Below, piece by piece: positions 11,438-61,115 of a DNA stretch of 64,000 bases. Each line of letters begins with the position of its first letter. Position 1 is the first letter of the stretch. The stretch comes from a virus (taxonomy: Duplodnaviria; Caudoviricetes), in the IMG/VR virus record IMGVR_UViG_3300021387_000034, positions 18,011 to 82,010 of that record; one strand, 5' to 3'. The notes below the pieces were generated by a model. It was given only the letters and a program-made list of their open reading frames with translations. It was not told the origin of the DNA and searched no databases. A program made the position numbers and the translations under genes.

Positions 11438-12250
11438 ATGATTGAACTCGACAAGATTTACAACATGGACTGCCTCGAAGGTATGAAGATGATTCCGAAT
11501 AGGAGTATCGACTGCATCATCACGGATTTGCCTTATGGGACAACATATTCAGACTTTGACAAAATGCTGCGAAACAACAAAAGAATCCGCCAATACGACA
11601 TTATTTCCATGCCCCTTTTGTGGGAACAATATACGCGAATTATCAAGCCTGATGGTGCTATCTGTTTATTTGCATGTCAACCGTTTACATCTACGCTTGT
11701 GGCTTCCAACGTCGAGTGGTATAAGTATTCGTGGATATGGATAAAGAACAAAGCAGCAAATCATGTCGCCATCAAATACCAGCCGTTAAAGATTACCGAA
11801 GAGATTTGCGTATTCTCTAACGCAGGTGTTAATACAAGAAGTCTCTGCCCCATTAAATACAACCCGCAGGGTGTTATCTGGAATAGACAGACAAAAACAA
11901 GAAAAAATGACATTGTCAAACGTGGTGTGTATAAGTATAATAACCTTAAAGCTGGGATTTACGAGGTTAAAGGAAACAATTATCCTACGAATATGCTTTA
12001 CTACCCTGTTCCTTCTGGCAAAGAGCGAGTCCATCCCACCCAAAAGCCCGTCGAACTCATCCGCTATCTTATTCGGACGTACTCCAATCCTGACGACACC
12101 ATACTTGATTCGTGCATGGGTTCAGGTACAACAGCAATCGCAGCACTGCGTGAAGACAGACATTTTGTCGGCTTTGAGTTGAATAAGGAATACTACGACA
12201 AGGCAAACAAAAGGATAAAGTTAGAACAACAACAATTAAGTTTATTTTAA
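11438..12250 (+). CDS. beta-class N6A/N4C DNA methyltransferase (MTase 1)
   Basis: DLPYG motif IV, HPTQKP, ILDSCMGSGTT motif I; start MIELDKIY. Confidence 0.92.
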   Translation: MIELDKIYNMDCLEGMKMIPNRSIDCIITDLPYGTTYSDFDKMLRNNKRIRQYDIISMPLLWEQYTRIIKPDGAICLFACQPFTSTLVASNVEWYKYSWIWIKNKAANHVAIKYQPLKITEEICVFSNAGVNTRSLCPIKYNPQGVIWNRQTKTRKNDIVKRGVYKYNNLKAGIYEVKGNNYPTNMLYYPVPSGKERVHPTQKPVELIRYLIRTYSNPDDTILDSCMGSGTTAIAALREDRHFVGFELNKEYYDKANKRIKLEQQQLSLF

Positions 12251-12262
12251 AATATTATAATC

Positions 12263-12613
12263 ATGGAAATTCAAGGTAGAGTAATTGCAATTTTAGAGCC
12301 ACAAAGATTCGTTTCGCAAAAGAACGGAAACGAATATGTGACTACCGTGTTTGTCATCGAAACCCCTGGCCAGTATCCTAAGAAAGTGGCCATGAAAGTA
12401 ATGGGTGAGGATAAGTTCAAGCAAATGGGTATCGTTATCGGTGGTACTTATAACGTGTCGTTTGATGTGGAAAGCCGTGAATGGAAAGGTAAATGGTTCA
12501 CAGAAGCGTCGGCTTGGCGTGCGCAACGTATTGATGGTGTTCAACAACAACCTGCTAACAATAATAACGTGAATGAGCAACCGCAAAAAGCAAACGATGA
12601 TGTACCTTTCTAA
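12263..12613 (+). CDS. DUF3127 SSB-like OB-fold protein
   Basis: QYPKKV, FDVESREWKGKWFT, Q/N linker, acidic tail DDVPF. Confidence 0.8.
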   Translation: MEIQGRVIAILEPQRFVSQKNGNEYVTTVFVIETPGQYPKKVAMKVMGEDKFKQMGIVIGGTYNVSFDVESREWKGKWFTEASAWRAQRIDGVQQQPANNNNVNEQPQKANDDVPF

Positions 12614-12639
12614 GCGTATCTAAAGAATACACATCTACT

Positions 12640-12981
12640 ATGGCGAATAAGAAAGCAAGATTGCAAGAACTTTGCCGTGAATATCTTTCACGCTTACGTT
12701 ACATGGGTAAGAAACACGGCATTGATGTTGATGCGATTATCCGTGCCAACAAGAGGCATGAATGCGAGGCAACGGAGAAAGAGGTTTCTATGCTTTCACG
12801 ACTTGTCGATGATGAACGTGTTAGCCGCAAGGATATACCAGAAATTGTCGGCAAGTCATATCGCCAATGTTGTGATGACGGTACGTTTGACAAGATAAAG
12901 ACGTTGAAACGTGTCGGTATTTATTCTAAAGTTAGTGCATTGTTGTATAAAAGCAAAATAAATGAAAGAACCGAGAAGTAA
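12640..12981 (+). CDS. hypothetical protein
   Basis: ATG ORF in operon. Confidence 0.7.
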   Translation: MANKKARLQELCREYLSRLRYMGKKHGIDVDAIIRANKRHECEATEKEVSMLSRLVDDERVSRKDIPEIVGKSYRQCCDDGTFDKIKTLKRVGIYSKVSALLYKSKINERTEK

Positions 12982-13606
12982 TGTTTTTAATGTTGATTGC
13001 GTAGAATATATGCGCACATTGCCAAATAATTATTTCGACCTTTGTATTGCCGACCCCAATTACGGGATAGGCATAGCAGCCAATCCTGTACGGCAAGCGC
13101 ATGAAAGAAAAGACTGGGACAATAAAACACCAGACAAAGAGTTCTTTGATGAACTATTCCGTGTGTCAAGGAATCAGATTATATGGGGCGGTAATTATTT
13201 TGACCTACCACCAACGAAAGGCTTTATCGTGTGGGATAAAAAACAGCCGATAGATTTCACGCTTTCTATGTGCGAATACGCTTGGACGAGTTTTAATAAG
13301 CCTGCAAAGATGTTTAGGGAGCACGTTCCGTCTAATGGAGAGGTAAAAATCCACCCAACGCAGAAAAGCGTAAACTTATATGCTTGGATATTGCGCAACT
13401 ATGCCAAAGACGGTGACTTGATATTTGACCCTATGATGGGTAGCCAGTCGAGCCGTATAGCAGCATACAAGATGGGCTTTGATTATGTAGGGTGCGAGGT
13501 TGAGCCTTTATACTTTAACAAAGGGAACGAACGCTTTAACAAGATATGTAACGGAGTAGTAAAACAATCCGATGGAACTGAAATTAAACAATTAACTTTG
13601 TTTTAG
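12962..13606 (+). CDS. beta-class DNA methyltransferase (MTase 2)
   Basis: DPNYG (variant motif IV), HPTQK, IFDPMMGSQSS. Confidence 0.85.
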   Translation: MKEPRSNVFNVDCVEYMRTLPNNYFDLCIADPNYGIGIAANPVRQAHERKDWDNKTPDKEFFDELFRVSRNQIIWGGNYFDLPPTKGFIVWDKKQPIDFTLSMCEYAWTSFNKPAKMFREHVPSNGEVKIHPTQKSVNLYAWILRNYAKDGDLIFDPMMGSQSSRIAAYKMGFDYVGCEVEPLYFNKGNERFNKICNGVVKQSDGTEIKQLTLF

Positions 13607-13624
13607 TTAAATAACATTAAATTA

Positions 13625-13656
13625 TTTGGAAATATGAAATAAAAGTAGTATCTTTG
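13625..13656 (+). promoter_or_regulatory. Bacteroidetes sigma-A promoter
   Basis: TTTG-N20-TATCTTTG. Confidence 0.8.
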
Positions 13657-13659
13657 CAC

Positions 13660-13904
13660 CAACCTATCAACCATGCGTTGAAAAGGTAACGGTGGCGTAG
13701 TTCCCGAAAGGGTGGTATCTTTTTAGGTATTATTGGTTAATTGCGCCACTTGTTAAGAAAGAATCGTTGATGCGTTGCCTATCACTTTAGACGCAAAAAC
13801 GTAGAGATATAAGTAATTACTATTTTCGCCAAAACGGGTGATAAGAAATTGGAGTGATAGCCAAGAGTATTATCGCCCGTTGGCTTTTAAAACTATCACA
13901 AATT
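13660..13904 (+). ncRNA. structured 5' leader / candidate cis-regulatory RNA
   Basis: two multi-helix domains between promoter and HNH start (see findings). Confidence 0.5.
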
Positions 13905-14309
13905 ATGAAAAAAGAGTATTTAGCGGCACTTGCCAGCCCACAATGGCAAAAGAAACGTCTTGAAATCATGCAAAGAGACAATTTTACTTGCCAATTTTGC
14001 GGTTGTAAGGATAGAACGTTGCACATTCATCACAAAGTGTACGAAAAAGGAAAGAAACCTTGGGAATACGAAGACAAGGATTTGATTACTTTGTGCGATA
14101 GGTGTCACGAATACATAACCGATGAAAAAAACAGTCTTTACGAAAATTTTACCAATGCACGAGATTGTTTTAGAAAGTTTGGTTTTAGTGATTCGATTTT
14201 TAATGCAATTTTGTGTGGCTTTTGTTCTTTTTTCGAAAGCATAAAAGAACAAGAAAAACATTGGAATTTTGATATAACAAAGCAAAAAACATCCATGATG
14301 CTGTTATGA
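13905..14309 (+). CDS. HNH endonuclease
   Basis: WQKKRLEIMQRDNFTCQFCG...LHIHH...LITLCDRCH. Confidence 0.85.
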   Translation: MKKEYLAALASPQWQKKRLEIMQRDNFTCQFCGCKDRTLHIHHKVYEKGKKPWEYEDKDLITLCDRCHEYITDEKNSLYENFTNARDCFRKFGFSDSIFNAILCGFCSFFESIKEQEKHWNFDITKQKTSMMLL

Positions 14310-14451
14310 GCACCCAAAATTATGACGATGTTAAAACCCTCGTTAAATTGGGGATTAAAGAAAAAGAATTGGTGAATTTCAATTATCCTATTTTTCTTGA
14401 AGACTATGATAATGCTAAAATAGATAAAAACGTATCTTTACTTCTTAATGA

Positions 14452-15324
14452 TTGATTGCTAATATGGAAAGAAACGATTATATTACCATCCAATCCTACA
14501 TGGTAACGGAACTTGGATTGAGCGGAAACAATTTGATTATCTATGCCCTTATACATGGTTTTTGTAAAGATGGAATACACGAATTTAAGGGTAGTATAAA
14601 TTATATTTGTGAATGGACTAACCTTACACGAAACACCGTGATAGCTATTCTAAAGCAATTAGTTGAAAGTGAATTACTCGTAAAGAGAACATACAAGGAA
14701 AATAATGTTACTTTTTGCGCTTATTCATTGGGTAGTGCAAAAATTGTACCACCAGTGCAAAATATAGATGAGGGTAGTGCAAAAATTTCACCCAATAATA
14801 ATATAGATAATACTAAATTGAAAAAAGATAAAGAAGAATCTTTATCTAAAAGTGCAAGCGATGTGGAACTTTTTGAAAAATGTTGGATTGAATATAGGAG
14901 AAAAGGGAAAAAGGGCAAATCCTTACCATATTGGAAAAAACTAACTGAAAGTGAGAAGCAAATGGTACTTCCACATATCAAGGCTTATGTAACAAGTCGT
15001 GAATTACAATTCCAACAGGATTTTGAACGATACCTACGCGATAAAACATTTACCACAATCGTATTTTCAAAAAACAAGGTAATATATGACCCTACAAGGT
15101 TAGACAAGAAAGACAAAGCCAATGAGGTATATATGCCGCTAACGGACGGTGCATTATCATGGAGCAACGATTTAAATTGTTATGTTTACGTAGGAATGTA
15201 CTACGGTCATGTTTCCGATGGATATACCGATGAAAACCGTCCTAACGGCGCAAAGGTGTTTCTTGGTAATGGTGGCGGTTATATTGTTTGGAATAGCGAA
15301 ACTAAAACTTGGGATAAGATATGA
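14452..15324 (+). CDS. replication initiator-like HTH protein
   Basis: N-terminal wHTH (GSINYICEWTNLTRNTVIAILKQL), low-complexity linker with DNA repeats, C-terminal FEKCWIEYRRKGKK domain; upstream of primase-helicase. Confidence 0.65.
   Translation: MIANMERNDYITIQSYMVTELGLSGNNLIIYALIHGFCKDGIHEFKGSINYICEWTNLTRNTVIAILKQLVESELLVKRTYKENNVTFCAYSLGSAKIVPPVQNIDEGSAKISPNNNIDNTKLKKDKEESLSKSASDVELFEKCWIEYRRKGKKGKSLPYWKKLTESEKQMVLPHIKAYVTSRELQFQQDFERYLRDKTFTTIVFSKNKVIYDPTRLDKKDKANEVYMPLTDGALSWSNDLNCYVYVGMYYGHVSDGYTDENRPNGAKVFLGNGGGYIVWNSETKTWDKI
14730..14787 (+). repeat. iteron-like direct repeats inside initiator gene
   Basis: GGGTAGTGCAAAAATT at 14730 and 14772; AGTGCAAAA core at 14734, 14754, 14776. 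Confidence 0.6.
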
Positions 15325-16130
15325 TAGAACTCGATAAAATATACAACATGGACTGCCTCGAAGGGATGAAGATGATTCCAGACGGGATGGTGGATGCCAT
15401 CATCTGCGACTTGCCATACGAGGTTCTGCACAAGAACAACCCCAACGCACAATGGGACAGACTCATTCCGATGGAACCGCTATGGGAGCAGTACAAGCGC
15501 GTCATCAAGGACAATGGGGCCATCCTGCTGTTCTGTCAGGGAATGTTCACGGCACAGCTGATGATGTCGCAGCCGAAACTCTGGCGATACAACCTTGTCT
15601 GGGACAAGTGTCGCTCGACAGGCTTCCTCAATGCCAACCGCATGCCGCTGCGCTGTCATGAGGATATCGCCGTGTTCTACAAGTCGCTGCCCGTCTATCA
15701 TCCGCAGATGACCGTCGGCACACCAAGTCATCCGCGTCATCCGCAGGGGAACGGCAAGCACAAGGAAACCAACAACTGCTACGGCAAGTTTAAAAGCGGG
15801 CGAACCTACGACTACGACAAGCAGATACGCAAGGTAGAGCCGACACGGCCTGGCGAGAAGTTTCCCACGAGTATCATTCGCATCAAGAAAGAACATGAAA
15901 CCACCGTGCTCCATCCCACGCAGAAGCCCGTCGAGCTTATCCGCTATCTTATCCGCACTTACAGCGAAACGGGTGGGGTAATTCTCGACAACTGCATGGG
16001 CAGTGGCACGACGGCTATAGCGTGTATTAAAGAAAAGCGTAATTTTGTAGGGTTTGAATTGGATAAGAACTATTACGAGATTGCAAAAAAAAGAATAGAA
16101 AAAGAACAATCACAATTAAGTTTGTTTTAG
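15321..16130 (+). CDS. beta-class DNA methyltransferase (MTase 3)
   Basis: DLPYE, HPTQKPVEL, ILDNCMGSGTT. Confidence 0.92.
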   Translation: MIELDKIYNMDCLEGMKMIPDGMVDAIICDLPYEVLHKNNPNAQWDRLIPMEPLWEQYKRVIKDNGAILLFCQGMFTAQLMMSQPKLWRYNLVWDKCRSTGFLNANRMPLRCHEDIAVFYKSLPVYHPQMTVGTPSHPRHPQGNGKHKETNNCYGKFKSGRTYDYDKQIRKVEPTRPGEKFPTSIIRIKKEHETTVLHPTQKPVELIRYLIRTYSETGGVILDNCMGSGTTAIACIKEKRNFVGFELDKNYYEIAKKRIEKEQSQLSLF

Positions 16131-16134
16131 TAAC

Positions 16135-18294
16135 ATGTACGAAATAGACGAATCGCAAATAAGGCTTTGGTGGAGCGTATTCAACCCACAAAACAAGTTG
16201 GTAGAGATACGCTTGTTAGGAAAGAATACGTATAGTGGGTATTTCAAGGATATTGATACTCTTATTGCCCAAATACGTCCTTTGCTTGACCATAACAACA
16301 TGCAATACTATGGTGCTATGCAAGCGTATTTCACGTTGAACGAAATCAACGAGGATTTGTATAGCCGCGAGCAACACGACGTATTTGTAAAGAAGCCGAA
16401 GTCAACGACCGCCGACGGAGACGTAATACGCAGGCGTTTTGTTCTTGTTGATTTAGACCCGTCGCGTGCGGCAGGGATAAGTGCAAGTGATGCGGAATTT
16501 GAAAAGGCACATTTAAAGGCTGTTGATATTTATAGGTATCTGATAAAAGCAGGTTTTAAAGAGCCGATGATAACAACATCTGGTAATGGCTATCATGTTT
16601 ATCTTCCTTGCGACATGCCAAATGATGATGTTCACACAGAAATAATAAAGCGTTTCTTGAAATCTTTATCAAAGATGTTCTCCGACGAAAACGTTGAAAT
16701 AGACGAAAAAGTCTTCAACCCTGCGAGAATAGATAAACTTATTGGAACATGGGCTAAGAAAGGAAGTGACACACAAGAAAGGAAATGGCGTATTTCGCGC
16801 ATATTGAAAGTTCCGTCAGATATGACTCCCAATGATGCCGCTTTGTTCCAAAAGATAGCGGACTTATTGCCAAAGGAAGAACCAAAGAACGTACCTAATC
16901 AAAATTATAGAAATCAATTAAGTACCAATTTCGATTTACGAACATGGCTAAAAACATATAACATAGAATATAAAGAAACAACGCAAGGTAATAGTACAAA
17001 GTTTGTTTTGCGTCATTGCCCTTGGGAAGATACACATAGCAGTAAAAAGGAATGGGAAAGCGCATTGTTTTTGGCACAAGACGGACAAATCACGTTTTCT
17101 TGTTTCCATAATCATTGTAAATCAAGGACATGGTTTGATTTTCGCCAATTCTATGAACCCGATGCGTATAATAAGCCAGTATATCAAACACAAATGTATG
17201 CACCACGTCAATATGCGCCGCAAAAGCCAAAGTACGAAATAAAGGACGTATTGCCAGAACTTGGAGAAAAGTGGCTTTCCATGTCATCTATACAAAAAGT
17301 GGATTTGTCAAAGTTGGAACATTATGCTACTGGTTTTGCCGAACTCGACAAGAATATAATCGGTCTTTATATGTCCGAAGTAACCATATTATCTGGTAGT
17401 AACGCAAGTGGTAAATCATCGTGGTTGAATACATTATTGCTAAATATAATACAACAAGGCGCAAAGGTTGCGCTATGGTCGGGAGAATTACGGCCAGACA
17501 TTCTTAAAACGTGGGTGCAAATGGTTGCGGCAGGTAAGAATAACCTACGGCAATCAACGTATGATGACGGGAAATATTATGTGCCGAATAATATAGCCGA
17601 ACGTATAGACCAATGGTTAGATGGAAAGTTTTTCTTGTATAACAACGATTACGGTGCAAAATGGCAGCAAATCTTTCACGACATGGAATTACTCTTAAAG
17701 GCTGGTGTAAAAGTGTTTGCTTTGGATAACTTGTTTAGCCTTGATATTGACATTCTTGATGGTGACAAGAACAGTAAACAACGTGAATTGATTTTACAAA
17801 TAAAGGACTTTGCTAAAAAGAACCAAGTCCACATTATATTGGTTGCACACCCGAGGAAAGTGACCACATTCCTTAGAAAGAACGATATAAGCGGAACTTC
17901 GGATTTGCAAAATGCGGTTGATAAAATATTCATAATCCATCGTGTGAATAATGACTTTTTCCGTGCAGGAGCTGAGTTTTTTGGGCAAGGTGAAATCCAA
18001 CGTTTCCAAGGTTTTGGAAATGTTGTTGAAGTGTGTAAAGAAAGACTTTATGGTGTCGTTGACCTTATGGTAGGTATGCAATATGAAATCGAAAGTCGGC
18101 GTTTCAAGAATACGATAGATGAAAATGTACAATATGGTTGGGAATTGCCACCCGCACAAAGCGCGATTTCGTTTGATGATAGGCAAGTGTATAGCCAACC
18201 ACAAGAAAACGCAACACAAGCAAAGGAAACGGCAAATAACGCAAACAACGACATGCCGTTTGAACCTTGCTATGACGATAATGCGCCTTTTTAG
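16135..18294 (+). CDS. primase-helicase fusion (AEP-like primase, Zn module, SF4 helicase)
   Basis: VLVDLDP and SGNGYHVY primase motifs; CPW..H..CFHNHC; Walker A GSNASGKS; HIILVAHPRK. Confidence 0.85.
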   Translation: MYEIDESQIRLWWSVFNPQNKLVEIRLLGKNTYSGYFKDIDTLIAQIRPLLDHNNMQYYGAMQAYFTLNEINEDLYSREQHDVFVKKPKSTTADGDVIRRRFVLVDLDPSRAAGISASDAEFEKAHLKAVDIYRYLIKAGFKEPMITTSGNGYHVYLPCDMPNDDVHTEIIKRFLKSLSKMFSDENVEIDEKVFNPARIDKLIGTWAKKGSDTQERKWRISRILKVPSDMTPNDAALFQKIADLLPKEEPKNVPNQNYRNQLSTNFDLRTWLKTYNIEYKETTQGNSTKFVLRHCPWEDTHSSKKEWESALFLAQDGQITFSCFHNHCKSRTWFDFRQFYEPDAYNKPVYQTQMYAPRQYAPQKPKYEIKDVLPELGEKWLSMSSIQKVDLSKLEHYATGFAELDKNIIGLYMSEVTILSGSNASGKSSWLNTLLLNIIQQGAKVALWSGELRPDILKTWVQMVAAGKNNLRQSTYDDGKYYVPNNIAERIDQWLDGKFFLYNNDYGAKWQQIFHDMELLLKAGVKVFALDNLFSLDIDILDGDKNSKQRELILQIKDFAKKNQVHIILVAHPRKVTTFLRKNDISGTSDLQNAVDKIFIIHRVNNDFFRAGAEFFGQGEIQRFQGFGNVVEVCKERLYGVVDLMVGMQYEIESRRFKNTIDENVQYGWELPPAQSAISFDDRQVYSQPQENATQAKETANNANNDMPFEPCYDDNAPF

Positions 18295-18312
18295 TTAAAA
18301 AAGATATAAAAA

Positions 18313-18344
18313 TTTGGCATATTCAAAACAAAACATTATATTTG
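18313..18344 (+). promoter_or_regulatory. Bacteroidetes sigma-A promoter
   Basis: TTTG-N20-TATATTTG. Confidence 0.8.
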
Positions 18345-18363
18345 CAACAAAATTAAAGAAAAA

Positions 18364-18783: not shown

Positions 18784-19063
18784 TAATGTTGACAAGTTTA
18801 GCGAAATCCTTTGGGAAATGAGCGAAACGTATAAAAAGAAAAATGCTGACTATGGAAATAGTTTTGGCGATACGATAAAAGAGTTCGGTTTTATACCTGC
18901 CGTTGCGCGTATCAACGATAAACTTAACCGTATCAAGAAAATGGTTAAGGGCGAAAAGATGAATATTGAAGAAAGTATGCAAGACAATTTGATTGATATT
19001 GCCGTATATAGTATATTGACAGTTTTAGAATTAGACAATCAAGAAAATGGGAAAAATACATGA
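18773..19063 (+). CDS. DUF1599 (nucleotide-modification-associated domain 1) protein
   Basis: YKKKNADYGNSF...RINDKLNRI...DNLIDIAVYSIL. Confidence 0.75.
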   Translation: MESSNVDKFSEILWEMSETYKKKNADYGNSFGDTIKEFGFIPAVARINDKLNRIKKMVKGEKMNIEESMQDNLIDIAVYSILTVLELDNQENGKNT

Positions 19064-19703
19064 CTTAAAATGTCAACGTTTTGGCCGGCTAATTGTGAAA
19101 GATTTTGTTGGACTAAATAAAAATAGAAAGGCGACATGGGATTGCTTGTGTGATTGTGGTAAAAAAGTTACCGTTGTGGGGACATCTTTAATTAATGGCT
19201 CAACAACATCTTGTGGATGCTACGCTTTGAAATCAAAACAAGAAAGATTTAAAAAGCACGGTTTAAGGAATCACGATTTGTACAAAACGTGGCTTAACAT
19301 AAAAGCGCGTTGTTATAATCCTAAAAATAATCATTACAAATACTACGGCGAACGTGGGATTAAAATGTGTGATGAGTGGAAAGATAATTTTGATAACTTT
19401 TTTAATTGGGCAATTAATAACGGATGGAAACGTGGACTGTCAATAGAAAGGATTGACAACAACAAACAATATGAGCCACAAAACTGCAAATGGATAGACA
19501 TTGGTAAGCAGTCTCAAAATAGAACAACAAACCATTATGTTGCTGACAAAAACGGAAACGTTTATACTATTGCAGAAATTTCTCGAAAAACAAATATCAA
19601 TGCGCACACATTATATTCTTGTTATAATAAACATAAAAGCATTTTGCCAACATTATATTTGCGAGGTATATATGATTATGTTGAAACAGATAACCAAAAA
19701 TAA
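19047..19703 (+). CDS. HNH homing endonuclease-like protein
   Basis: RFGRLIV, CLCDCG, SCGC, KARCYN...YGERGI, IERIDNN..YEPQNCKW. Confidence 0.85.
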   Translation: MGKIHDLKCQRFGRLIVKDFVGLNKNRKATWDCLCDCGKKVTVVGTSLINGSTTSCGCYALKSKQERFKKHGLRNHDLYKTWLNIKARCYNPKNNHYKYYGERGIKMCDEWKDNFDNFFNWAINNGWKRGLSIERIDNNKQYEPQNCKWIDIGKQSQNRTTNHYVADKNGNVYTIAEISRKTNINAHTLYSCYNKHKSILPTLYLRGIYDYVETDNQK

Positions 19704-39837: not shown

Positions 39838-41799
39838 ATGAATGAAGAAATAAGCAGAATAGATATTAATAACGTAAACTACAAGCTAAAGGATGAAGAT
39901 ACCAGAGCACTTGGTGAAATGGGTAAACAAGCCTTGATAAAAGTAGGTTATTACGTTTGTAGCACACAGGGAAGTACTGCTGCAAAAACCATTAGTGCTG
40001 CGGATTACACCTTGTCTGCAGGTGGGTGTATCAAAGTAAAAATGGATAATGCAAACACTGTAAATAATGCCACACTGAATATTAATTCAACAGGCGCAAA
40101 GCCTCTTTACTATGCAGGCGAAAGAGCTTCTGCTACTAATAGTTGGGAAGCAGGAGAAACGGTTGAAGTTTACTACGATGGAACAAGTTACTATGCTAAT
40201 AATGTTGCTGGTAATTCTTCTGACGGTGTATTTGATGTAAGTAAAAAATATCCTACAAGTGGTGTAGAAGGAGGTAATACTTATACACTTGAAGGTGCGC
40301 TTTCTGTTCTTAATACTAATCTTCCTGCTAGTAAGAAAAGAGGTGGCATGAGCATTAAGTTCATACAGAGTTCTGACAATAACTATATACAAGCCCGTCT
40401 GATGGCTAATGCTTTCACCACTGATATTACTCAGTGGCAGGTAGTAGATGATACTCCAAAGAAGGGAAGCCACAATCTAATAGAGAGTGGGGGTGTGTAT
40501 GAAAAAACAAAAGGCATACAGCACGAGACTGATGAAACAGGAAATGAAGAGATATTGATTGAAAGCGAAGATAACGGACCTCTTGTTAAAGTAACAGAAG
40601 ATTATGTTGACTGTAAAAACCTTAGAAGTAATGGTGTAGATGTGCTTGATGAAATAGGTAGTATAGCCTCAAAATCTCCGACACCATCAGATACAGATGA
40701 AATACTTTTTACAGGAGATGATTATTCCGAAACACTTGGTGGCGAGGTACACGCGAAAGTAGGAAGTTATGGAGTAAAATCTAAAGGGTATCTTGATATG
40801 GAAGGCAACGATGCCATACAGCCATATATAAACAAAATCAAGAACAAGAACGCAAGATTTATATTCTTAGGCGATTTACATTATCCAGGCAATGATAGCA
40901 ATCTCGATAATGAAGTACCTGTAGAGGATTTGCCATCAAGTATGACAGAAGGACACAGTATTAGATATAAGTATCAGCATCTTGTAGATGCTCTTAATGC
41001 AGAACACCACAAGAGACCTATTGACCTTGTATTATGTACTGGTGATGTTATTGAAAATTATTCTTTTGAGTCTTTCATTAAAGAGTTTGCATGGCAGCTT
41101 GAAATGCCTATTGTATTTGGACCTGGTAATCATGATGTAGTAGCACAAAGTTATTGGATTGAATATTTCGGTAACAAATGGAGTTTTAATGTTGAAACTG
41201 ACGATTTCTTGTTTGTTTTCTTTGATGTGTGGGACCATATAAACATTCCTACAGGAGAACATTTCCCAACGTACCAAGAAATATATGACAGAATTGAAGA
41301 TGCTTGTAGTCATGGTAAAATCGTTATTTCTTTCTCACATTCTGAGGGTGGAGAATATCGTGAAAATATGATTTCTATAGCAAGTCATTTTCCTAACTAC
41401 ATAGCACATGTTGCTGGTCATACACATAGTATGAGACTTCTTCCTTATGGAAAGTTCACTGTTATTAATGACGGAAATTTTGCATATAACGGAGATGGTA
41501 TCTATAGGGAAGATGAAGTTCGAGGTCTTTTTGGGTTTAATAATATTGAAGTCGAAAACGGTTCTTTAAAGACTTGGTTTATTTGGCCTGAATACAATTA
41601 CAGGAAAGCTAATTTCACTTTCCCATTCTCAGAAGGAACTTTGCATAAAGTTGATGATACTCATTATACAGTTGAAAGTAATCAGAAGTTCACAATGATA
41701 GAAAACGCCAACTTGGAGAGCACAGCTGACACCTTGCAGTTATATAAACTGAAAGACATCTACCTAAAGAAAAAGATTGCGATTAACGAAAATAGATAA
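39838..41799 (+). CDS. tail-fibre-like protein with C-terminal calcineurin-like metallophosphoesterase
   Basis: GDLH, GDV, GNHD, SH, GHTH motifs in order. Confidence 0.75.
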   Translation: MNEEISRIDINNVNYKLKDEDTRALGEMGKQALIKVGYYVCSTQGSTAAKTISAADYTLSAGGCIKVKMDNANTVNNATLNINSTGAKPLYYAGERASATNSWEAGETVEVYYDGTSYYANNVAGNSSDGVFDVSKKYPTSGVEGGNTYTLEGALSVLNTNLPASKKRGGMSIKFIQSSDNNYIQARLMANAFTTDITQWQVVDDTPKKGSHNLIESGGVYEKTKGIQHETDETGNEEILIESEDNGPLVKVTEDYVDCKNLRSNGVDVLDEIGSIASKSPTPSDTDEILFTGDDYSETLGGEVHAKVGSYGVKSKGYLDMEGNDAIQPYINKIKNKNARFIFLGDLHYPGNDSNLDNEVPVEDLPSSMTEGHSIRYKYQHLVDALNAEHHKRPIDLVLCTGDVIENYSFESFIKEFAWQLEMPIVFGPGNHDVVAQSYWIEYFGNKWSFNVETDDFLFVFFDVWDHINIPTGEHFPTYQEIYDRIEDACSHGKIVISFSHSEGGEYRENMISIASHFPNYIAHVAGHTHSMRLLPYGKFTVINDGNFAYNGDGIYREDEVRGLFGFNNIEVENGSLKTWFIWPEYNYRKANFTFPFSEGTLHKVDDTHYTVESNQKFTMIENANLESTADTLQLYKLKDIYLKKKIAINENR

Positions 41800-52421: not shown

Positions 52422-52685
52422 CTACATATTATAACCCCAAAATTCAAGTATTTCATCGTAAATATATGGACTACAAGCATTATGTGTGTAAAGTTTCCAC
52501 ATCGTCGAACCAACTGGATATTTATTCCTAAGTCCGAAATAATGCTTACGTGTCATACGCATAATATAGTTGGTCTTTGCAGAATGGTTGGCCACCTTGT
52601 ATTTACAAACAGGAAAGCCCTCATTGTCAAACGTGACATGCTTGTGGAACAACTTTAGTTGCTTTGCTATTTTTCTTACTCTCAT
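52422..52685 (-). CDS. hypothetical basic protein
   Basis: ATG ORF. Confidence 0.6.
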   Translation of the reverse strand: MRVRKIAKQLKLFHKHVTFDNEGFPVCKYKVANHSAKTNYIMRMTRKHYFGLRNKYPVGSTMWKLYTHNACSPYIYDEILEFWGYNM

Positions 52686-52690
52686 AATTC

Positions 52691-53461
52691 TTAATATAGT
52701 GGGTCACATACATAGTTGTTTAACACATCAAAAACGTCTTTACTTATTTCATTTTTCCATTCATTTGCTAAAGACCTTGCACGTTTTTCTTTTGCTGCTT
52801 TGTATTCAAGGAATGCCGATTCTTTAGAATTAAAATACCCAAGATGTTTATATTCACCGTTTCCATTGTTTATACGTGCAACATATTTGCCATTTTTAAA
52901 CAAGTTTACACCGATTGGCATATCTTCACGTCTTGCATCGTTTCTTGTGAAAAATGCGTTAATTTCTTGTGGAACAAAACAACAAGTTTGTGGACTATAA
53001 ATCTTATTTCCTTTTACGATAATATCTTTATCAAGAGTAAAACCTTCAACATAATTATCGCACCACCAAGAGTAAAAGTTAGAAAAGTGTTTCCATTCAT
53101 CGCAAATAGTACACCCTTTGTACGATTTGTGCTTATAACGTAATTTTTCACTATAACACCGTTCTAATATCATAGTCCATACCCGATATGCTCTTAGAAC
53201 ATCACCTTGAAGATTCCCGTTGAAATCATTGATACCAACACCATATTTTAGGCGCTTCAATAAATTGTTTGCACATATAGGGCAACCGTGCCCTTTTAAA
53301 TGGCTGTGTGGTGTTTGTAGAAAATCGCCATGCAATCTACACGTAATAGTGATGTTTTTGTCTATACGTGTATAAATAGATTTGGAATAATCATACTTGT
53401 CACCATGCACTTGTTTGGCACGGTTTACAAATTCGTCTTGTGTAATTTGTTTACCTTTCAT
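52691..53461 (-). CDS. homing endonuclease-like protein (DUF723 + HNH + AP2)
   Basis: HGDKYDYS..CRLHG..GHGCPIC; LDKDI..GNKIYSPQTC; AP2 GV..Y.ARI..HLGYF. Confidence 0.8.
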   Translation of the reverse strand: MKGKQITQDEFVNRAKQVHGDKYDYSKSIYTRIDKNITITCRLHGDFLQTPHSHLKGHGCPICANNLLKRLKYGVGINDFNGNLQGDVLRAYRVWTMILERCYSEKLRYKHKSYKGCTICDEWKHFSNFYSWWCDNYVEGFTLDKDIIVKGNKIYSPQTCCFVPQEINAFFTRNDARREDMPIGVNLFKNGKYVARINNGNGEYKHLGYFNSKESAFLEYKAAKEKRARSLANEWKNEISKDVFDVLNNYVCDPLY

Positions 53462-54613: not shown

Positions 54614-54618
54614 AGGCG

Positions 54619-54858
54619 TTAGAGTTTACTATATTCTTCGTTAGTTAATACATGCCATTTGTTTTCTTCATCTTGGCAAAGCCATTCTGTAGGGCGTGCA
54701 TATTGCCATTTTGTATTATCGTGCATACATATCCAATACAACACGTAATATATTCCACAATTACCGCTTTTATGGCATGATTCAACGCAAGGCAAATCCA
54801 TTATTCCTTGGCTTACATGATTCGGCACTTGAATTGCAAACTTGAACTTTTTTCCCAT
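54619..54858 (-). CDS. hypothetical protein
   Basis: ATG ORF in operon. Confidence 0.6.
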   Translation of the reverse strand: MGKKFKFAIQVPNHVSQGIMDLPCVESCHKSGNCGIYYVLYWICMHDNTKWQYARPTEWLCQDEENKWHVLTNEEYSKL

Positions 54859-54876
54859 AACTACTTTCTTTTTTTA

Positions 54877-55506: not shown

Positions 55507-55512
55507 AAATCG

Positions 55513-55731
55513 TTAATCGTTATCTATTATTTCGCCCGTTTCAATCACATATCCTTGTTTGCCACATTTCGGACATTCAAGGTTTTTAAGAAGCGTTGAT
55601 ATAGGTCTTACAGCAATCCACCGCTTTAGACACCCAAGGCAAACAACCTCGGATGCCTTGTGCGGAAGATTTTCTTCGATGTAGTGTATCTTACTCATCT
55701 TTTTTGTTTGTAAAACTTTCTTGAACAACAA
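55513..55731 (-). CDS. small Zn-ribbon protein
   Basis: CLGC...CPKC. Confidence 0.55.
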   Translation of the reverse strand: MLFKKVLQTKKMSKIHYIEENLPHKASEVVCLGCLKRWIAVRPISTLLKNLECPKCGKQGYVIETGEIIDND

Positions 55732-55957
55732 TTCTTTCTTTGTTCACTGTCATATACAATGGTTGTAGTGGTTTACAAAATGTTTGTACTGAAAGATAAA
55801 TCTTCCTTGTAAACACAACCTTTAGCAACTCTTTCCAAGACAGTTTCCAGCACGTCATTACTTCACCATCTTGAAACACAAGTGCTGGCAACGGTTCGTA
55901 TTCCTTTTGGTCTTTACCAAAGACCACGTTTTGTTCCTTAAATTCTATCGGTTTCAT
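55691..55957 (-). CDS. conserved phage hypothetical protein
   Basis: MKPIEFKEQN...YEPLPA...TCWKLSWKE. Confidence 0.7.
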   Translation of the reverse strand: MKPIEFKEQNVVFGKDQKEYEPLPALVFQDGEVMTCWKLSWKELLKVVFTRKIYLSVQTFCKPLQPLYMTVNKERIVVQESFTNKKDE

Positions 55958-56421
55958 TATCTATCTTCTATTGTTATTTTCTTTTTATTGTAGTAAATTA
56001 CTTCGCGAAATACCCATTGCCCACGTCCTTTTGCATTGTGTTCATAGATTTTCTTGACCATAAGTTTGCGTCGTAGGATATAGTCGGCAAGTTTTGATGT
56101 CATTTGCGACTTAAATTCTTCACAAACGTATTTGCCGTTTTCAAAGTAAGTAAAGTCACAATGATAACCCGCTTCGTGTTCTATAACTTTCTTATCCCAC
56201 CTAACTTTTGTCTTTAGTTGCTTGGGTACTAACTTGGTGGTTTTCTTGATTAACAAGAATGGTGTTTGCAAACGTAATCCACTAATTTTTCCTTCCCTTT
56301 GTAGTTGGTAAAGATATATGTAGCGGTCACGTTCATAGGTGGAATCAAATTTTATGCCTTTGTATTCAACCTTGTTAGCACCAAACTTGTTATTCGTGGA
56401 TTTCCGTCCGTATCGTTTCAT
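55957..56421 (-). CDS. DUF1064 family PD-(D/E)XK nuclease-like protein
   Basis: NKFGA...GIKFDS.YE...LQTPF...Y.CDF.Y...EEFK. Confidence 0.8.
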   Translation of the reverse strand: MKRYGRKSTNNKFGANKVEYKGIKFDSTYERDRYIYLYQLQREGKISGLRLQTPFLLIKKTTKLVPKQLKTKVRWDKKVIEHEAGYHCDFTYFENGKYVCEEFKSQMTSKLADYILRRKLMVKKIYEHNAKGRGQWVFREVIYYNKKKITIEDR

Positions 56422-56828
56422 TAGATAACTTCTAATACCTTAGTCTTTTTAATTGCTAAGATAGTCATATCAAAGCCTTGTTCAAGATACTTTTTAACCT
56501 TTGCGTTAGCGTCATCCCATGATGTAGCGTAAAGTGCAACCTTATAGACGATTTCTACTTCCTCTCCGTCATCGTTTGTGCGAACGTCGGCAATATCAGC
56601 AACCCAAACCCTATCATCGTCTGTATTGCGCTTATTGATGATTTCACGAACCTTGGAACGCTTGATAGCTACAATTTCCAAGTCCTTTTCACCAGAGCAA
56701 TAGTCATATCCTTGTGTTTCCGCATCACCAAATGTTTCTGCGTTTTCCACCATGTATTTTTCCTTGATAACCTTTTCGTTCCCCTTGCTATCAATCCTTG
56801 TGAATTGTGCTTGAATTTCGTAAATCAT
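56421..56828 (-). CDS. DUF4494 family protein
   Basis: KEKYMVENAETFGDAE...ALYATSWDDA. Confidence 0.7.
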   Translation of the reverse strand: MIYEIQAQFTRIDSKGNEKVIKEKYMVENAETFGDAETQGYDYCSGEKDLEIVAIKRSKVREIINKRNTDDDRVWVADIADVRTNDDGEEVEIVYKVALYATSWDDANAKVKKYLEQGFDMTILAIKKTKVLEVI

Positions 56829-56840
56829 AATCTTTTTATA

Positions 56841-57320
56841 TTATTCTTCTTTAAGTTTTATTTCTACATTTTTCGGATGGTGAACAACTACTTTAATCAC
56901 ATCTTGTAAGTCGCTTTTTGCCGTTTTGTCGCGTAGTTTTATAATGCGCCTTATGATTGCCCACCGTTTAGTCCAAATGGTTTCGCTGGCTATCATATTG
57001 CCCATTTTGTTCACGCAATTTGCTATACTTTGCTCTGTGAATTTCTTTCCGTAGCGTAGAGTGATATTGGAAATACGTATAAACGGTTCGTTCGTCATAT
57101 ATCGGTAGGCATACCAAAACAACCACCGTGAATGAATGGTACTTAATTTGCTAACATTGTTCATCATATCGAACTTGTCAACGCCACATGTAGCGGCAAC
57201 GCAATCAACAAGATAGTCTTGTATTCGAAGTTCATGCAAGCGCAATAGGCTGCAAACTTCGTCAATATCGGCATTGTCTAACGTGTTCCAATCGTCAATT
57301 ATTTTCTCATCACTATCCAT
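56841..57320 (-). CDS. DnaA domain IV-like HTH protein
   Basis: V..TCGV....M......SRWLFWYAYR..T....I pattern. Confidence 0.5.
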   Translation of the reverse strand: MDSDEKIIDDWNTLDNADIDEVCSLLRLHELRIQDYLVDCVAATCGVDKFDMMNNVSKLSTIHSRWLFWYAYRYMTNEPFIRISNITLRYGKKFTEQSIANCVNKMGNMIASETIWTKRWAIIRRIIKLRDKTAKSDLQDVIKVVVHHPKNVEIKLKEE

Positions 57321-57335
57321 CGGTTTCTTGCTTAT

Positions 57336-57776
57336 TTAATGGTTCTTCTTTCTTTCGTTGATACCGTTCAATATCGTTTGGTCTTTCATCGGCAATCTTT
57401 CGACATATAGGTTAAGCCTTTGTAGGTCTTTGCCTAAAACCTTATCCCACACACCAACAACGGAATAGCGGAAACGTAGGAACGTAAACGTGCCTTTATA
57501 CGCTACAACATCACCGTCAACTTGCTTTTCAAGATAACATTCAAACGTAGGCTTGCGCTTCCGTGTTATGTATTGTTGTTGGTCAAAGTCATATTGCATG
57601 ATAGGATTGCGCTTTATCCAAAGATAATTCTTATGGCCTTGCGTGAAATACGTTGCTTCTATGCCGCCATCCAAGAAGACCCCATCTATTGTGAGGTCGC
57701 CTTGGTATTTGCCGCCAGCTTGCCGCTGAATAAACCCATTCACATAATCTTCGTAAATCATAGTGCAAATGTACAA
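57336..57776 (-). CDS. hypothetical protein
   Basis: ORF after promoter; true start probably the ATG of MIYEDY. Confidence 0.7.
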   Translation of the reverse strand: MYICTMIYEDYVNGFIQRQAGGKYQGDLTIDGVFLDGGIEATYFTQGHKNYLWIKRNPIMQYDFDQQQYITRKRKPTFECYLEKQVDGDVVAYKGTFTFLRFRYSVVGVWDKVLGKDLQRLNLYVERLPMKDQTILNGINERKKNH

Positions 57777-57797
57777 AAAAATAAATTACCAAATAAA
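57766..57797 (-). promoter_or_regulatory. Bacteroidetes sigma-A promoter
   Basis: TTTG upstream and TACATTTG at 57766-57773. Confidence 0.7.
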
Positions 57798-57804
57798 ATG
57801 GAAT

Positions 57805-58209
57805 TTATATTTCTTCTACGGATAATTCTTCAACCGTCCAACAGTCACATGCTTCAAGAATCGCCTTTAATTCCCTTGACTTGTGCCGTGCGTACTTGTA
57901 ACGTTCCAAGTCTTGCTTAATGTAGCCTTTCAATATTTCCAACAATTCGGGTATGGTGTAACACTTATTTTTGTATTCAACCGCCCATTCCGTATTTTCG
58001 GTGTTGGCATACATGTAACCATTTTCTTCGTCAAATTCTTGAGTATAGTTATTCGTAGTAATTTCAACGTCACGCGACAAAGTGACAACCACGTTAAGGC
58101 TAAAATTCATATCAGGAACTAATGGTTCGTTCCACGGGGCTGCATCCAATTGGCTTTGTGACATAGCGGGATAGTTGCTATTTGGACTTAAACTTTCATT
58201 GTAACTCAT
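57805..58209 (-). CDS. hypothetical protein
   Basis: SNYPAMSQSQ.D.APWNE motif. Confidence 0.7.
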   Translation of the reverse strand: MSYNESLSPNSNYPAMSQSQLDAAPWNEPLVPDMNFSLNVVVTLSRDVEITTNNYTQEFDEENGYMYANTENTEWAVEYKNKCYTIPELLEILKGYIKQDLERYKYARHKSRELKAILEACDCWTVEELSVEEI

Positions 58210-58220
58210 ACAATTTCACA

Positions 58221-59387
58221 TTAATCGGCTAAAAGCATTGGCATAAGTAACGACGTATATTCATAAACATTATTCGTTGTACCCTCGGTAATCAATCCAG
58301 CACGGCTTGGGTCGGCAAGAGCAATCTTTACCGTGTCGCCATCAACGTTTTGCAAAAGTTGCAACAATGCGCTACCCTTGAAACCAATAGAAATTGGGGC
58401 ACTTGTAGGAGAATAGTCGCAAGGGACATTCTCGCTTGCGGACTTGCTAAAATCAAAATCTTCTGCGGCTATCGTTAGCATACCATCGGCAAAAGTCAAA
58501 GAAACCAATTCGGACATTGAATTACCCATAGGTAGCACTCGTTTCATAGCCGAAATGAAAGCTGCCTTATCAACGTTAACAATCTTGTCGTTGGTCTTAG
58601 GAATGACTGAATCGTAGTTCGGATAGCGTCCTTCGATAAGTCTTGCGGTCAACTTGAATTGTGTGTTATTAACCGTAAAGCAACGGTCGTTGAATACCAC
58701 CTTGACATCACCCGCAATAGTGTTAGCTAACACGTTCATAAGTGTGTTACAAGGCTTTTTAGGCATTGTGAAACCGTATATCGTTTGGTCTTCGCTATTG
58801 TCGTAAGTGATAGTCAAATCCTTATACTTTGAAAGTTTGTGACCATCACTTGCAACGGCAACCATACCGTCCGCAAAGAACTCAAACCTTACACCGTTCA
58901 TCACTGGTCGTAATTCGTCATTTGCCGTAGCATATCCCGCACGTTCAATAGCCGTAAGAATTTTCTTGCCATCAATACGCTTTTCCTTGCCGTCATCAAC
59001 GGTAGCCATAGGCATAGGAAATTCGTTCGGTTCATCGTATGGTAACGAGAATTTGCCGTTGTCGTACTTGCACGTGATAATGTGCTTTTCGTCGTTGATT
59101 TCCATTGTCACGAATTTGCCACCAAGATTTCGTAGTGCTTGCAACAAAGCCTTTGCCTCGATACAAATAACGATACCAATCTCAGCTTCCGTAATGCTTG
59201 CTTTCCATTGTAACCACGTTTCGCTATCACTTGCCATAAGTTCGGCAATCACACCACCTTGACCGTCATCTTTCGTTTCTATGCGGACATCATTAAGAAT
59301 TGGTAATGCGTTTTTTGAAAGGACTACGGAATTAACCAACGCAAGTGCGGGTGTTAATTCGTCGGAATTGAATTTGATAATCTTCAT
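58221..59387 (-). CDS. dnaN: DNA polymerase III sliding clamp (beta subunit)
   Basis: LPILNDV, DELRPVMNGV, ASDGHKL, RLIEGRYPNY, IGF, LLMPM. Confidence 0.93.
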   Translation of the reverse strand: MKIIKFNSDELTPALALVNSVVLSKNALPILNDVRIETKDDGQGGVIAELMASDSETWLQWKASITEAEIGIVICIEAKALLQALRNLGGKFVTMEINDEKHIITCKYDNGKFSLPYDEPNEFPMPMATVDDGKEKRIDGKKILTAIERAGYATANDELRPVMNGVRFEFFADGMVAVASDGHKLSKYKDLTITYDNSEDQTIYGFTMPKKPCNTLMNVLANTIAGDVKVVFNDRCFTVNNTQFKLTARLIEGRYPNYDSVIPKTNDKIVNVDKAAFISAMKRVLPMGNSMSELVSLTFADGMLTIAAEDFDFSKSASENVPCDYSPTSAPISIGFKGSALLQLLQNVDGDTVKIALADPSRAGLITEGTTNNVYEYTSLLMPMLLAD

Positions 59388-59409
59388 AAGTTTCTCTTAT
59401 TAAATTTGT

Positions 59410-59910
59410 TTATCTATTATTTAAAATAAAATGTAATGTTCCTTTTGACGAAATACCGAAATGTTCCATTGTTTTTTTGTAAGACTTTGTTTTTGCGTGA
59501 AATTCTTTTATTTCTTTTACTCTTTCATCGTTATTGTAACCACTATAACATGATGCAGCATACCTTGCACTTTCGATACGTTTAAGTTTTGGTATATCAA
59601 GGCTATTGTCTTTCAAAGTGCCAATTTCTATATTGTCAAACGAATTATTCAAACAATCACCGTCCAAATGTCGGACGCATTCGCAAGAAAATATTATTTC
59701 TCCGTACTTTTGATACGCAACAAAACGGTGTGTTGGTATATTAAAAATTTGCCCTTTATAGCGAATAGTGAATTTTTTGTACCCATTATGTTGCAAATTT
59801 CCAACAATATTTCCTTTAGGTGAAATAATATCACCATTTTCTTTTGCCCGATAGCCAAGCGAAAAAGCCAGCATTATTGCCTTGTTTCTTTTAAATCCTT
59901 TTTCTTTCAT
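59410..59910 (-). CDS. HNH endonuclease
   Basis: THRFVA...VRHLDGDCLNNSFDNI. Confidence 0.8.
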   Translation of the reverse strand: MKEKGFKRNKAIMLAFSLGYRAKENGDIISPKGNIVGNLQHNGYKKFTIRYKGQIFNIPTHRFVAYQKYGEIIFSCECVRHLDGDCLNNSFDNIEIGTLKDNSLDIPKLKRIESARYAASCYSGYNNDERVKEIKEFHAKTKSYKKTMEHFGISSKGTLHFILNNR

Positions 59911-59931
59911 ATCACAAAAATAACAAAATAG

Positions 59932-60002
59932 TTAGGATAATGGGAGTCGAACCCATACTAAGGGAACCAAAATCCCTTGTGCTACCGCTACACCATACCC
60001 CG
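59932..60002 (-). tRNA. tRNA-Gln(UUG)
   Basis: cloverleaf: anticodon arm AGGGA-TTTTGGT-TCCCT, T-arm GGTTCGACTCC; no encoded CCA. Confidence 0.85.
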
Positions 60003-60012
60003 ATTTAATTAG

Positions 60013-60084
60013 TTGCGGTAGTGGAACTTGCATCCCACCACGATGGTTATGAGCCATGTATGCGACTATCACACTGCTACCGCG
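60013..60084 (-). tRNA. atypical tRNA with CAU anticodon (Met/fMet/Ile2)
   Basis: acceptor CGCGGTA/TACCGCA, loop CTCATAA, non-canonical T-loop TGCAAGT. Confidence 0.65.
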
Positions 60085-60147
60085 ATGTTAAATCCTACTG
60101 CCTTTCACAAGTTTTCGGATTTTAACAAATTCAAAGTTTTTGTAGTG

Positions 60148-60179
60148 CAAAGGTAGTGCTAATTTTTGAATATACCAAA
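60148..60179 (-). promoter_or_regulatory. Bacteroidetes sigma-A promoter for tRNA-HNH-dnaN unit
   Basis: TTTG-N20-TACCTTTG. Confidence 0.8.
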
Positions 60180-60209
60180 TCCTTCGATGGAAATTTTAAT
60201 AAATTAACA

Positions 60210-61115
60210 CTACACCAAGTTTAATTCCGTTTGTACAGCTTGTTTAAGTACACTTGGGCGTGTATAATACTTGCTTTCTTGCATAGCGAACATATCAGGA
60301 TGAACATTCTTTTTGATAGCGTCGCAAGCGTCAACGAAAAAACGCTTAGATATTTCAAATCCGTAAGCCTTACGTCCAAGATTAGCCGCCGCAATCAAAG
60401 TAGAACCGCTTCCTGCAAATGGGTCGATAACAACATCATCTGGGTCTGTGAAAAGTTCTATAAGCCGTTTTAACAGCGGTATGCTTTTTTGCGTTGGATG
60501 AATACGTTCCATACCCAAATCACGGGGATAGTCCATACAGTTGAATATCATTTGACCGTTATTATTGAACTTTGGTAATTTGTCACGGTATAGTATTAAG
60601 CCATATTCGCAATTACCGACAACTTTCATGTTTGCTTTTAATACTTGCGCTGAATAGTTCTTGCGGAATACAAGGTTGATATAGTGTTTAAACCCATATC
60701 GCTTTGCAAGTTCAATAAGGTAGAATTGTTGCATGAACTCACAAAAGACAATCATACACGGTGCGCTTGTCTTTGTGCGGTCGTTATCATCAACCTTTCC
60801 TTTGGGTTCTGGTTTAAGCATTTGTGATGCAAAGTGCATCATTTCCGCAGGCTTGAAATTTTCGTCCGTAGTAAAGAATGTTTCTCCCGCAAGTTCGCTT
60901 TCTCCGTTCTTATTGTCTCCGTCGATATACCAACTCGGGTTACTACCATAAGCGTTAGCACCAAGCGAATACGGAATATCCGTTAAGATAAGTTGTGCTT
61001 TTGGTATGCCATATCTCTTGTAATCCTGCATGGTAGAATTGAACAACCCAACACGATTATTAAGCATACGAAATTCTGGGTCAACCACAGTCACGTCACG
61101 TTTATCAAGTTTCAT
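60210..61115 (-). CDS. beta-class DNA methyltransferase (MTase 4)
   Basis: DIPYS, HPTQK, VIDPFAGSGST. Confidence 0.9.
   Translation of the reverse strand: MKLDKRDVTVVDPEFRMLNNRVGLFNSTMQDYKRYGIPKAQLILTDIPYSLGANAYGSNPSWYIDGDNKNGESELAGETFFTTDENFKPAEMMHFASQMLKPEPKGKVDDNDRTKTSAPCMIVFCEFMQQFYLIELAKRYGFKHYINLVFRKNYSAQVLKANMKVVGNCEYGLILYRDKLPKFNNNGQMIFNCMDYPRDLGMERIHPTQKSIPLLKRLIELFTDPDDVVIDPFAGSGSTLIAAANLGRKAYGFEISKRFFVDACDAIKKNVHPDMFAMQESKYYTRPSVLKQAVQTELNLV

Follow-up and report, generated by a model that had tools for sequence, protein, structure and literature searches.

Candidate sliding-clamp-binding tails on the four DNA methyltransferases of a tailed phage that encodes its own beta clamp

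When a phage genome encodes four DNA methyltransferases (MTases) that end in short peptides resembling a clamp-binding motif, and in addition a beta sliding clamp (dnaN), the question arises whether these peptides recruit the enzymes to a clamp and, if so, to whose. Such a genome is represented by the IMG/VR virus record IMGVR_UViG_3300021387_000034, of which we analysed a window of 64,000 nucleotides, bases 18011-82010. A preliminary description of this window had proposed that several of the MTases are loaded onto a phage or host sliding clamp, so that nascent DNA would be methylated at the fork before host restriction acts. As set out below, we consider it fairly probable that the tails work as clamp-binding motifs and in this way recruit the enzymes; the usual partner, however, is probably the clamp of the host, and the phage clamp an extra in the present lineage.

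The four enzymes (Table 1) are the only genes in the complete genome that match the N6_N4_Mtase family PF01555, for which the cut-off (gathering score) is 26.7 bits. Translation reproduced exactly the reading frames and C-termini reported for them earlier. All four display the beta motif order, with DLPY, DPNY, DLPY and DIPY, respectively, near the N-terminus and GSG or GSQ near the C-terminus, and from the family they are predicted to transfer methyl groups to a defined DNA target. The sequences DPNY and GSQSS might be taken to inactivate MTase 2; this idea was rejected, as both are common natural variants among its homologues. Among the 243 open reading frames (ORFs) of at least 60 amino acids in the window, a C-terminal QLxLF is found only in MTases 1, 2 and 3. 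The end of MTase 4, already described as a weaker match, fits the QxxLxL variant of the motif.

By our estimate, which uses rough amino-acid frequencies, a C-terminal QLxLF is expected by chance in about 1 protein in 70,000, so that two independent tails are already far beyond chance. Being paralogues (44% identical), MTases 1 and 3 share their tail by descent and count as one case. MTases 2 and 4 align with MTase 3 over the S-adenosylmethionine (SAM)-binding region only; that is, their tails are independent cases. The two paralogues also have near-identical gene ends (the first ~58 nucleotides, 11438-11495 and 15321-15378, and the last ~25, 12226-12250 and 16106-16130), and their N-terminal 20 residues are the same, which suggests gene conversion or strong constraint at both ends. 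The sole other QLxLF among these ORFs is an internal QLKLF, residues 9-13 of an 87-residue ORF just downstream of an HNH gene; on a rough estimate one internal match is within chance, but it may represent a clamp motif near the N-terminus like that of Hda.

To describe the tail in homologues, we used the pattern Qxx[LMI]F or QxxLx[LFIV], at most four residues from the C-terminus. The tail so defined is present in 108 of the 119 homologues of MTase 2 (53-80% identity) and in 0 of 120 homologues of DnaN, which served as control. When 62 MTase 2 sequences, a hand-picked subset, are aligned, Q210 is kept in 61, L213 in 59 and F214 in 62, position 211 varies between L, Q and T, position 212 between S, T and N, and the 13 residues preceding the motif have an entropy of 2-3 bits. 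The anchors of the published clamp motif are Q1, L4 and F5, and the motif comes in two types, a pentapeptide like QL[S/D]LF and a hexapeptide like QxxLxL. At the MTase 2 position in 35 viral contigs, the pentapeptides QLSLF, QTSLF, QTTLF and QMTLF occur, and also hexapeptides, among them QMRLTL, QEVLSL and QQVLAF. Thus, the tail looks like a clamp motif because its conserved positions are the Q1, L4 and F5 anchors and because both motif types interchange.

The tails of the other enzymes are less uniform. Relatives of MTase 4 end in QPTLF, QGQLF, QQKIF, QLSFD.. or QQELALV, and QTELNLV therefore occupies the place of clear motifs. Relatives of MTase 3 at 33-34% identity have the tail, those at 67-69% lack it, and it is a minority feature among the 50%-cluster representatives of the MTase 1/3 family. 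This patchy distribution indicates an add-on module that lies outside the fold. In an AlphaFold2 (AF2) model of MTase 2 (predicted local distance difference test, pLDDT, 87), the chain closes with a helix and a small hairpin, followed by five residues of coil, a block with a pLDDT of ~60. We accordingly rejected the possibility that the MTase fold includes the tail, given the relatives at 67-69% identity that do without it and the coil in the AF2 model. Might the tails be inherited or chance sequence without function? The paralogy of MTases 1 and 3 would account for one pair by descent, but strong purifying conservation stands beside a freely varying linker, three or four unrelated MTase lineages and other enzymes carry the tail, and the background in other ORFs is near zero. 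We give this explanation almost no credence. Taken together, these data support the view that the tails are real, conserved motifs of the clamp-binding type on all four MTases.

The clamp gene of the phage is complete, as the preliminary description had it, with all three DnaN domains, and the nearest solved relative of its product is the beta clamp 8dt6 (E=1e-38). Its cleft motifs GH.L, P....V and MPM align with those of solved clamps (VASDGHKL with VATDGHRL, GRYPNYDSVIP with GKFPDYERVLP, and LLMPM with VVMPM). We compared the 23 cleft positions, defined as the clamp residues that touch the peptide in the complex model described below, with those of clamps from Bacteroides oleiciplenus, a Bacteroidaceae genome and a Prevotella genome. 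Identity in the cleft is 17-18/23 (74-78%), against 36-38% over the whole protein. The phage cleft is thus selectively conserved, and its make-up looks the same as that of the likely host clamps. A degenerate pocket in the phage DnaN, named earlier as an outcome that would speak against clamp loading, is not what we found; the canonical cleft is kept. Three dnaN-like genes, with identities of 37%, 33% and 32% to the phage clamp, occur in one Prevotella genome, and the additional copies may be part of mobile elements.

To assess the fit between tail and clamp, we modelled two copies of the phage DnaN with residues 171-214 of MTase 2, starting from alignments. The model scored 0.67, as compared with 0.00 for the best of 3 controls, a pass that may reflect memory, as similar complexes have been solved. 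The mark applied to this score is met by 58 of 80 solved complexes and by 2 of 110 mismatched pairs. Contacts agreed between runs by at least 92%, with a pLDDT of at least 59 for the partner and of 90 for the clamp chains. Residues 206-214 of the tail contact DnaN residues 180, 182-183, 185, 256, 261, 337, 361, 363, 380 and 382-387. The contacted surface in the model is the canonical cleft, which speaks for likeness to a clamp client, not for binding. Of the complex modelling of the tails with a clamp proposed in the preliminary description, the part carried out is this pair, in which the tail of MTase 2 is placed in the phage cleft.

These results also bear on the idea that the tails are some other short motif, for example a protease degron or a dock for another replication protein (the primase-helicase or the DUF3127 protein), and are like clamp motifs in appearance only. 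It is true that short hydrophobic C-termini can act as degradation tags, and that other replication genes stand between those for the MTases. However, the conservation of Q1, L4 and F5 and the interchange with QxxLxL reproduce two published types of clamp motif, the model prefers the canonical cleft while its controls stay at zero, and the tail is kept across phyla whose phages have no other replication proteins in common. An unrelated motif of this kind is therefore an unlikely source of the pattern.

If the tails are clamp-binding motifs, do they depend on a clamp of the phage? In viral records that are at least 90% complete and encode an MTase 2 homologue (n=10), dnaN is present in 2/10, by a protein search with which a profile search agrees, and the tail is kept in 9/10, in seven of these at most four residues from the end. 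Tails in viral records without dnaN include QTTLFEL, QLTLFD, QTSLFDL, QLSLF and QLQLF. No dnaN was found in five cultured phages that have tailed homologues: Bacteroides phage BI-TP1 (gp90, VQTNLFDK), Bacteroides phage BF486P1 (BF486P1_00059, VQTSLFGV), Flavobacterium phage stinky9-1 (gp05, SQLRLF), Cellulophaga phage Nekkels (gp87, SQTTLF) and Streptococcus prophage Javan253 (Javan253_0028, MQVKLF). In bacterial genomes, 44 of 77 complete homologues have the strict tail, and in more the motif lies 5-13 residues from the end; the tailed homologues span Bacteroidota, Clostridia, Erysipelotrichaceae, Mollicutes, Treponema, Sulfurovum and Methylotenera. A link between tail and phage dnaN, for which the preliminary description had suggested a co-occurrence test, was therefore rejected: the tails are independent of it, since complete phages without dnaN keep them. 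Because tails occur in phages without dnaN and in several bacterial phyla, the host clamp would be the general partner.

The same survey allowed us to weigh the possibility that this is a closed phage system, in which the phage clamp is a platform dedicated to the MTases and is the protein that their tails evolved to bind. Such a system would be in keeping with the docking of the MTase 2 tail on the phage clamp in the model, with a clamp that is present although no Pol A, Pol B or Pol III alpha family match is, and with the distance of ~2-4 kb between the MTase 4 homologue and dnaN in four related phages (in two others they lie far apart). It is at odds with the scarcity of dnaN beside the tail in the near-complete viral records, with the five phages that have tailed homologues and no dnaN, and with the tailed homologues across bacterial genomes of several phyla. 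The phage cleft, moreover, is nearly the same as the host clefts, and gives no sign of a private specificity. A closed system is thus improbable in our view. What stands of the original proposal is the loading of MTases on a phage or host clamp, which the clamp-type tails, the canonical cleft and the MTase 2 model favour; the need for a phage clamp falls away.

The virus record comprises 82,010 bp with 107-bp direct terminal repeats, is rated 100% complete and has a G+C content of 38.8%. It encodes a terminase and a tape-measure protein, and is therefore that of a tailed phage, presumably of the gut or rumen. The nearest relatives of MTase 2 in bacterial genomes belong to rumen and gut Bacteroidales, Prevotellaceae and Bacteroides assemblies, which, together with the 36-38% identity of the phage clamp to Bacteroides and Prevotella DnaN, makes a host in the Bacteroidales likely. 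The absence of a DNA polymerase, noted before for the window, extends to the complete 82,010-bp genome, in which no member of the DNA polymerase (Pol) III alpha, Pol A or Pol B families was matched. The phage therefore presumably uses the Pol III of its host, which itself needs clamp clefts. A megablast comparison of the replication module with GenBank phages gave no match.

This dependence is relevant to yet another explanation, namely that the tails do bind the clamp, but for takeover and not for better methylation: abundant tailed MTases would occupy clamp clefts and so displace host clients such as repair factors, Hda or translesion polymerases. There is a precedent in MuC of phage Mu, a phage protein whose clamp-binding motif uses the host clamp and whose titration of the clamp is harmful in E. 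coli (bioRxiv 10.1101/2025.01.04.631326), and four tailed proteins per phage could titrate clefts in the same manner. But a phage without a polymerase needs clefts to be free for host Pol III, and the tail is specific to DNA-modifying enzymes of several unrelated folds rather than attached to arbitrary proteins. We regard a takeover of this sort as a poor candidate.

From the motifs, their conservation, the cleft and the fit in the model, we infer instead a mechanism of recruitment. The tail peptide would insert between domains II and III of a beta clamp loaded on DNA, into the hydrophobic cleft found there; the clamp could be that of the host and, in the present lineage, the phage DnaN as well. 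We assume that the loader of the host places the clamps on DNA. Clamps left behind the fork could then act as landing pads for the MTases. DNA-bound clamps reportedly accumulate in live E. coli, to judge from the title of one paper. Since a clamp is the sign of DNA that has just been copied, the tether would enrich the MTases on the nascent DNA of the phage, and methylation could keep pace with replication and be complete before packaging or restriction cleavage. More speculatively, the extra phage clamp might make more clefts available, and the four MTases would then not deprive host Pol III of those that it requires.

Restriction-type palindromes are extremely scarce in the genome. Counted over the whole genome, GATC occurs once where ~211 sites are expected (at genome position 12167, outside the window), CCGG once against ~119 (window position 19085) and CTAG once against ~106 (window position 40328). 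CCNGG occurs 5 times (~110 expected), GGNCC 10 times (~110) and GAATTC twice (~28), and many 6-bp palindromes, e.g., CATATG, CCATGG, GTCGAC and GACGTC, are absent. This avoidance indicates strong restriction pressure on the phage, which is consistent with a protective role for the four MTases.

Several points weigh against recruitment through the tails. The MTase 4 tail is degenerate in the present phage. That of the MTase 1/3 family is found, by the strict pattern, in 15 of 47 viral relatives, with several near-matches in addition, and such patchiness implies that it is non-essential to enzymes of this kind. MTases 1 and 3 also have no flexible linker ahead of the motif, and their docking may be constrained. 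The alignment of 62 MTase 2 sequences was selected by hand, and the unbiased figure is the 108/119 given above. Finally, the complex model was built with our own alignments and with two clamp copies, which depart from the calibration of its score, and many beta-clamp/peptide complexes have been solved, so that its pass may reflect memory.

MTases 1-3 belong to the replication module of the phage. They are interleaved with genes for a DUF3127 protein, a DnaD/helix-turn-helix (HTH)-like candidate replication initiator and a primase-helicase fusion, and MTase 4 lies beside dnaN. The DUF3127 protein and the primase-helicase have acidic ends that, we presume, resemble the C-terminal tip (D-D-D-I-P-F) of the single-stranded DNA-binding protein SSB, and the former may have a single-strand-binding role. 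These two SSB-like tips may represent a second interaction network of terminal peptides within the module. HNH-type endonucleases are also encoded at four places, of which one is in the replication module and another separates MTase 4 from dnaN. They resemble homing-endonuclease inserts, and the latter copy is probably of the homing type.

We also sought other tailed proteins in the flanks of related viral loci. The tail was found on five proteins (Table 1): a member of the Mom family, an HU-like DNA-binding protein, an N6 MTase of the gamma class, a weak match to radical-SAM proteins and half of a C5 MTase. In Flavobacterium phage stinky9-1, the C-terminus of the C5 MTase gp06 reads NQVSIFDAIG. 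A broader proposal would be that clamp tails serve the mobile elements of different bacterial phyla as a general means of coupling DNA-modifying enzymes of many folds (beta-, gamma- and C5-class MTases, Mom-type and possibly radical-SAM-like proteins) to the clamp, by which new DNA is chemically marked during its synthesis, and that some polymerase-less phages add a clamp of their own to enlarge the platform. This would be an undescribed bacterial and phage counterpart of the eukaryotic pairing of DNMT1 with PCNA. We put the chances of this broader proposal at about even.

Table 1. Genes of the window and tailed proteins of related viral loci (locations in the window unless a locus, L, is given)
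Feature	Location	Strand	Size	C-terminal end or tail	Family match and remarks
MTase 1, beta-class N6/N4 DNA methyltransferase	11438..12250	+	270 aa	QQQLSLF; QLSLF at 12233-12247	PF01555, E=4e-32, 112 bits
DUF3127 protein	12263..12613	+		acidic end ...DDVPF	PF11325; between MTase 1 and MTase 2
MTase 2, small beta-class DNA methyltransferase	12962..13606	+	214 aa	KQLTLF; QLTLF at 13589-13603	PF01555, 50 bits; motif follows a variable linker
HNH-type endonuclease	13854-14309	+			
DnaD/HTH-like replication initiator candidate	14452..15324	+			HTH_36; DnaD_N below cut-off; stop overlaps MTase 3 start
MTase 3, beta-class N6/N4 DNA methyltransferase	15321..16130	+	269 aa	QSQLSLF; QLSLF at 16113-16127	PF01555, E=1e-32, 114 bits
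Primase-polymerase/DnaB-like helicase fusion	16135..18294	+	719 aa	...DDNAPF	AAA_25 and DnaB_C pass cut-offs; LigD_Prim-Pol below; begins right after MTase 3
HNH-type endonuclease	19047-19703	+			
ORF with internal QLKLF	52422-52685	-	87 aa		
HNH-type endonuclease	52691-53461	-			
dnaN, beta sliding clamp	58221..59387	-	388 aa		PF00712, PF02767 and PF02768 all pass cut-offs
HNH endonuclease	59410..59910	-			PF13392 HNH_3; between MTase 4 and dnaN
MTase 4, beta-class DNA methyltransferase	60210..61115	-	301 aa	QTELNLV (QxxLxL type) at 60213-60233	PF01555, E=1e-23, 84 bits
Mom-family protein	L011:2609-3298			QQMTLF	
HU-like DNA-binding protein	L011:2244-2612			QLKLFEG	
Gamma-class N6 MTase	L009:9300-10145			QLTLFDL	
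Protein with weak radical-SAM match	L024:1263-2450			QLSLF	match below Pfam cut-off
Half C5 MTase	L029:5401-6042			QTTLF	
Prevotella genome (G045) with three dnaN-like genes	contig with L195 and two other places on it				

If recruitment through the tails is correct, DNA methyltransferases would join the clients of the beta clamp as a new class, and a very common one, and the anti-restriction methylation of phages would be coupled to replication rather than dependent on free diffusion. This would explain how small orphan MTases can methylate every site on a fast-replicating genome before it is packaged. A C-terminal Qxx(L)F would become a sequence marker that separates replication-coupled orphan MTases from those linked to restriction-modification. 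The clamp 'tool-belt' would gain competitors, and there would be a hint as to why some phages without a polymerase have dnaN.

How do these enzymes compare with known systems? In mechanism, the closest are the classical bacterial clients of the beta clamp, which include Pol II, Pol IV, Pol III alpha, delta, Hda, MutS/MutL and UmuC. In Hda the clamp motif sits at the N-terminus; Pol III alpha and MutL have their main motifs within the chain, although the preliminary description had placed them at the ends. The MTases share with the classical clients both motif types, placed at an exposed terminus, and their tails are predicted to occupy the same cleft between domains II and III; they differ in being DNA methyltransferases or, in relatives, DNA-modifying enzymes of other kinds. 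In the full-text literature (open-access papers and bioRxiv), no account of beta-clamp binding by a DNA MTase from a bacterium or phage was found, and a prior description is possible. The sequence comparisons suggest that DNA MTases are a new class of clients for a known clamp interaction.

The nearest solved structures are those of orphan beta-class MTases, with the folds of CcrM, DpnA, M.RsrI and M.MboIIA, which have the same PF01555 catalytic domain. The enzymes described here carry the tail as an add-on module, one that comes and goes within the family; we know of no clamp-binding tail described for CcrM, DpnA, M.RsrI or M.MboIIA.

Among mobile elements, the closest case is that of M.EcoGIX and M.BceJIII, plasmid-encoded MTases that are specific for single strands and associate with DNA polymerase I; the authors suggested a host intermediary, and noted that Pol I binds the sliding clamp (PMC7736820). 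There too, MTases of mobile elements have their action tied to replication proteins. However, they are enzymes of another type, the partner is Pol I, and no clamp-binding motif has been reported for them.

In its logic, the closest parallel is that of DNMT1 and PCNA, in which an MTase carries a short clamp-interaction peptide and newly copied, clamp-marked DNA is preferentially methylated (PMC9690074). The likeness is one of logic only, in that a methyltransferase is tied to the replication clamp by a short peptide, and does not extend to homology. DNMT1, a C5 enzyme, engages a trimeric PCNA through a PIP (PCNA-interacting peptide) box, whereas the phage proteins are small beta-class N6/N4 enzymes with a motif of the bacterial type, distinct from a PIP box, and the clamp is a dimeric DnaN. 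The likely purpose also differs: in the phage it would be protection against restriction, and not epigenetic inheritance.

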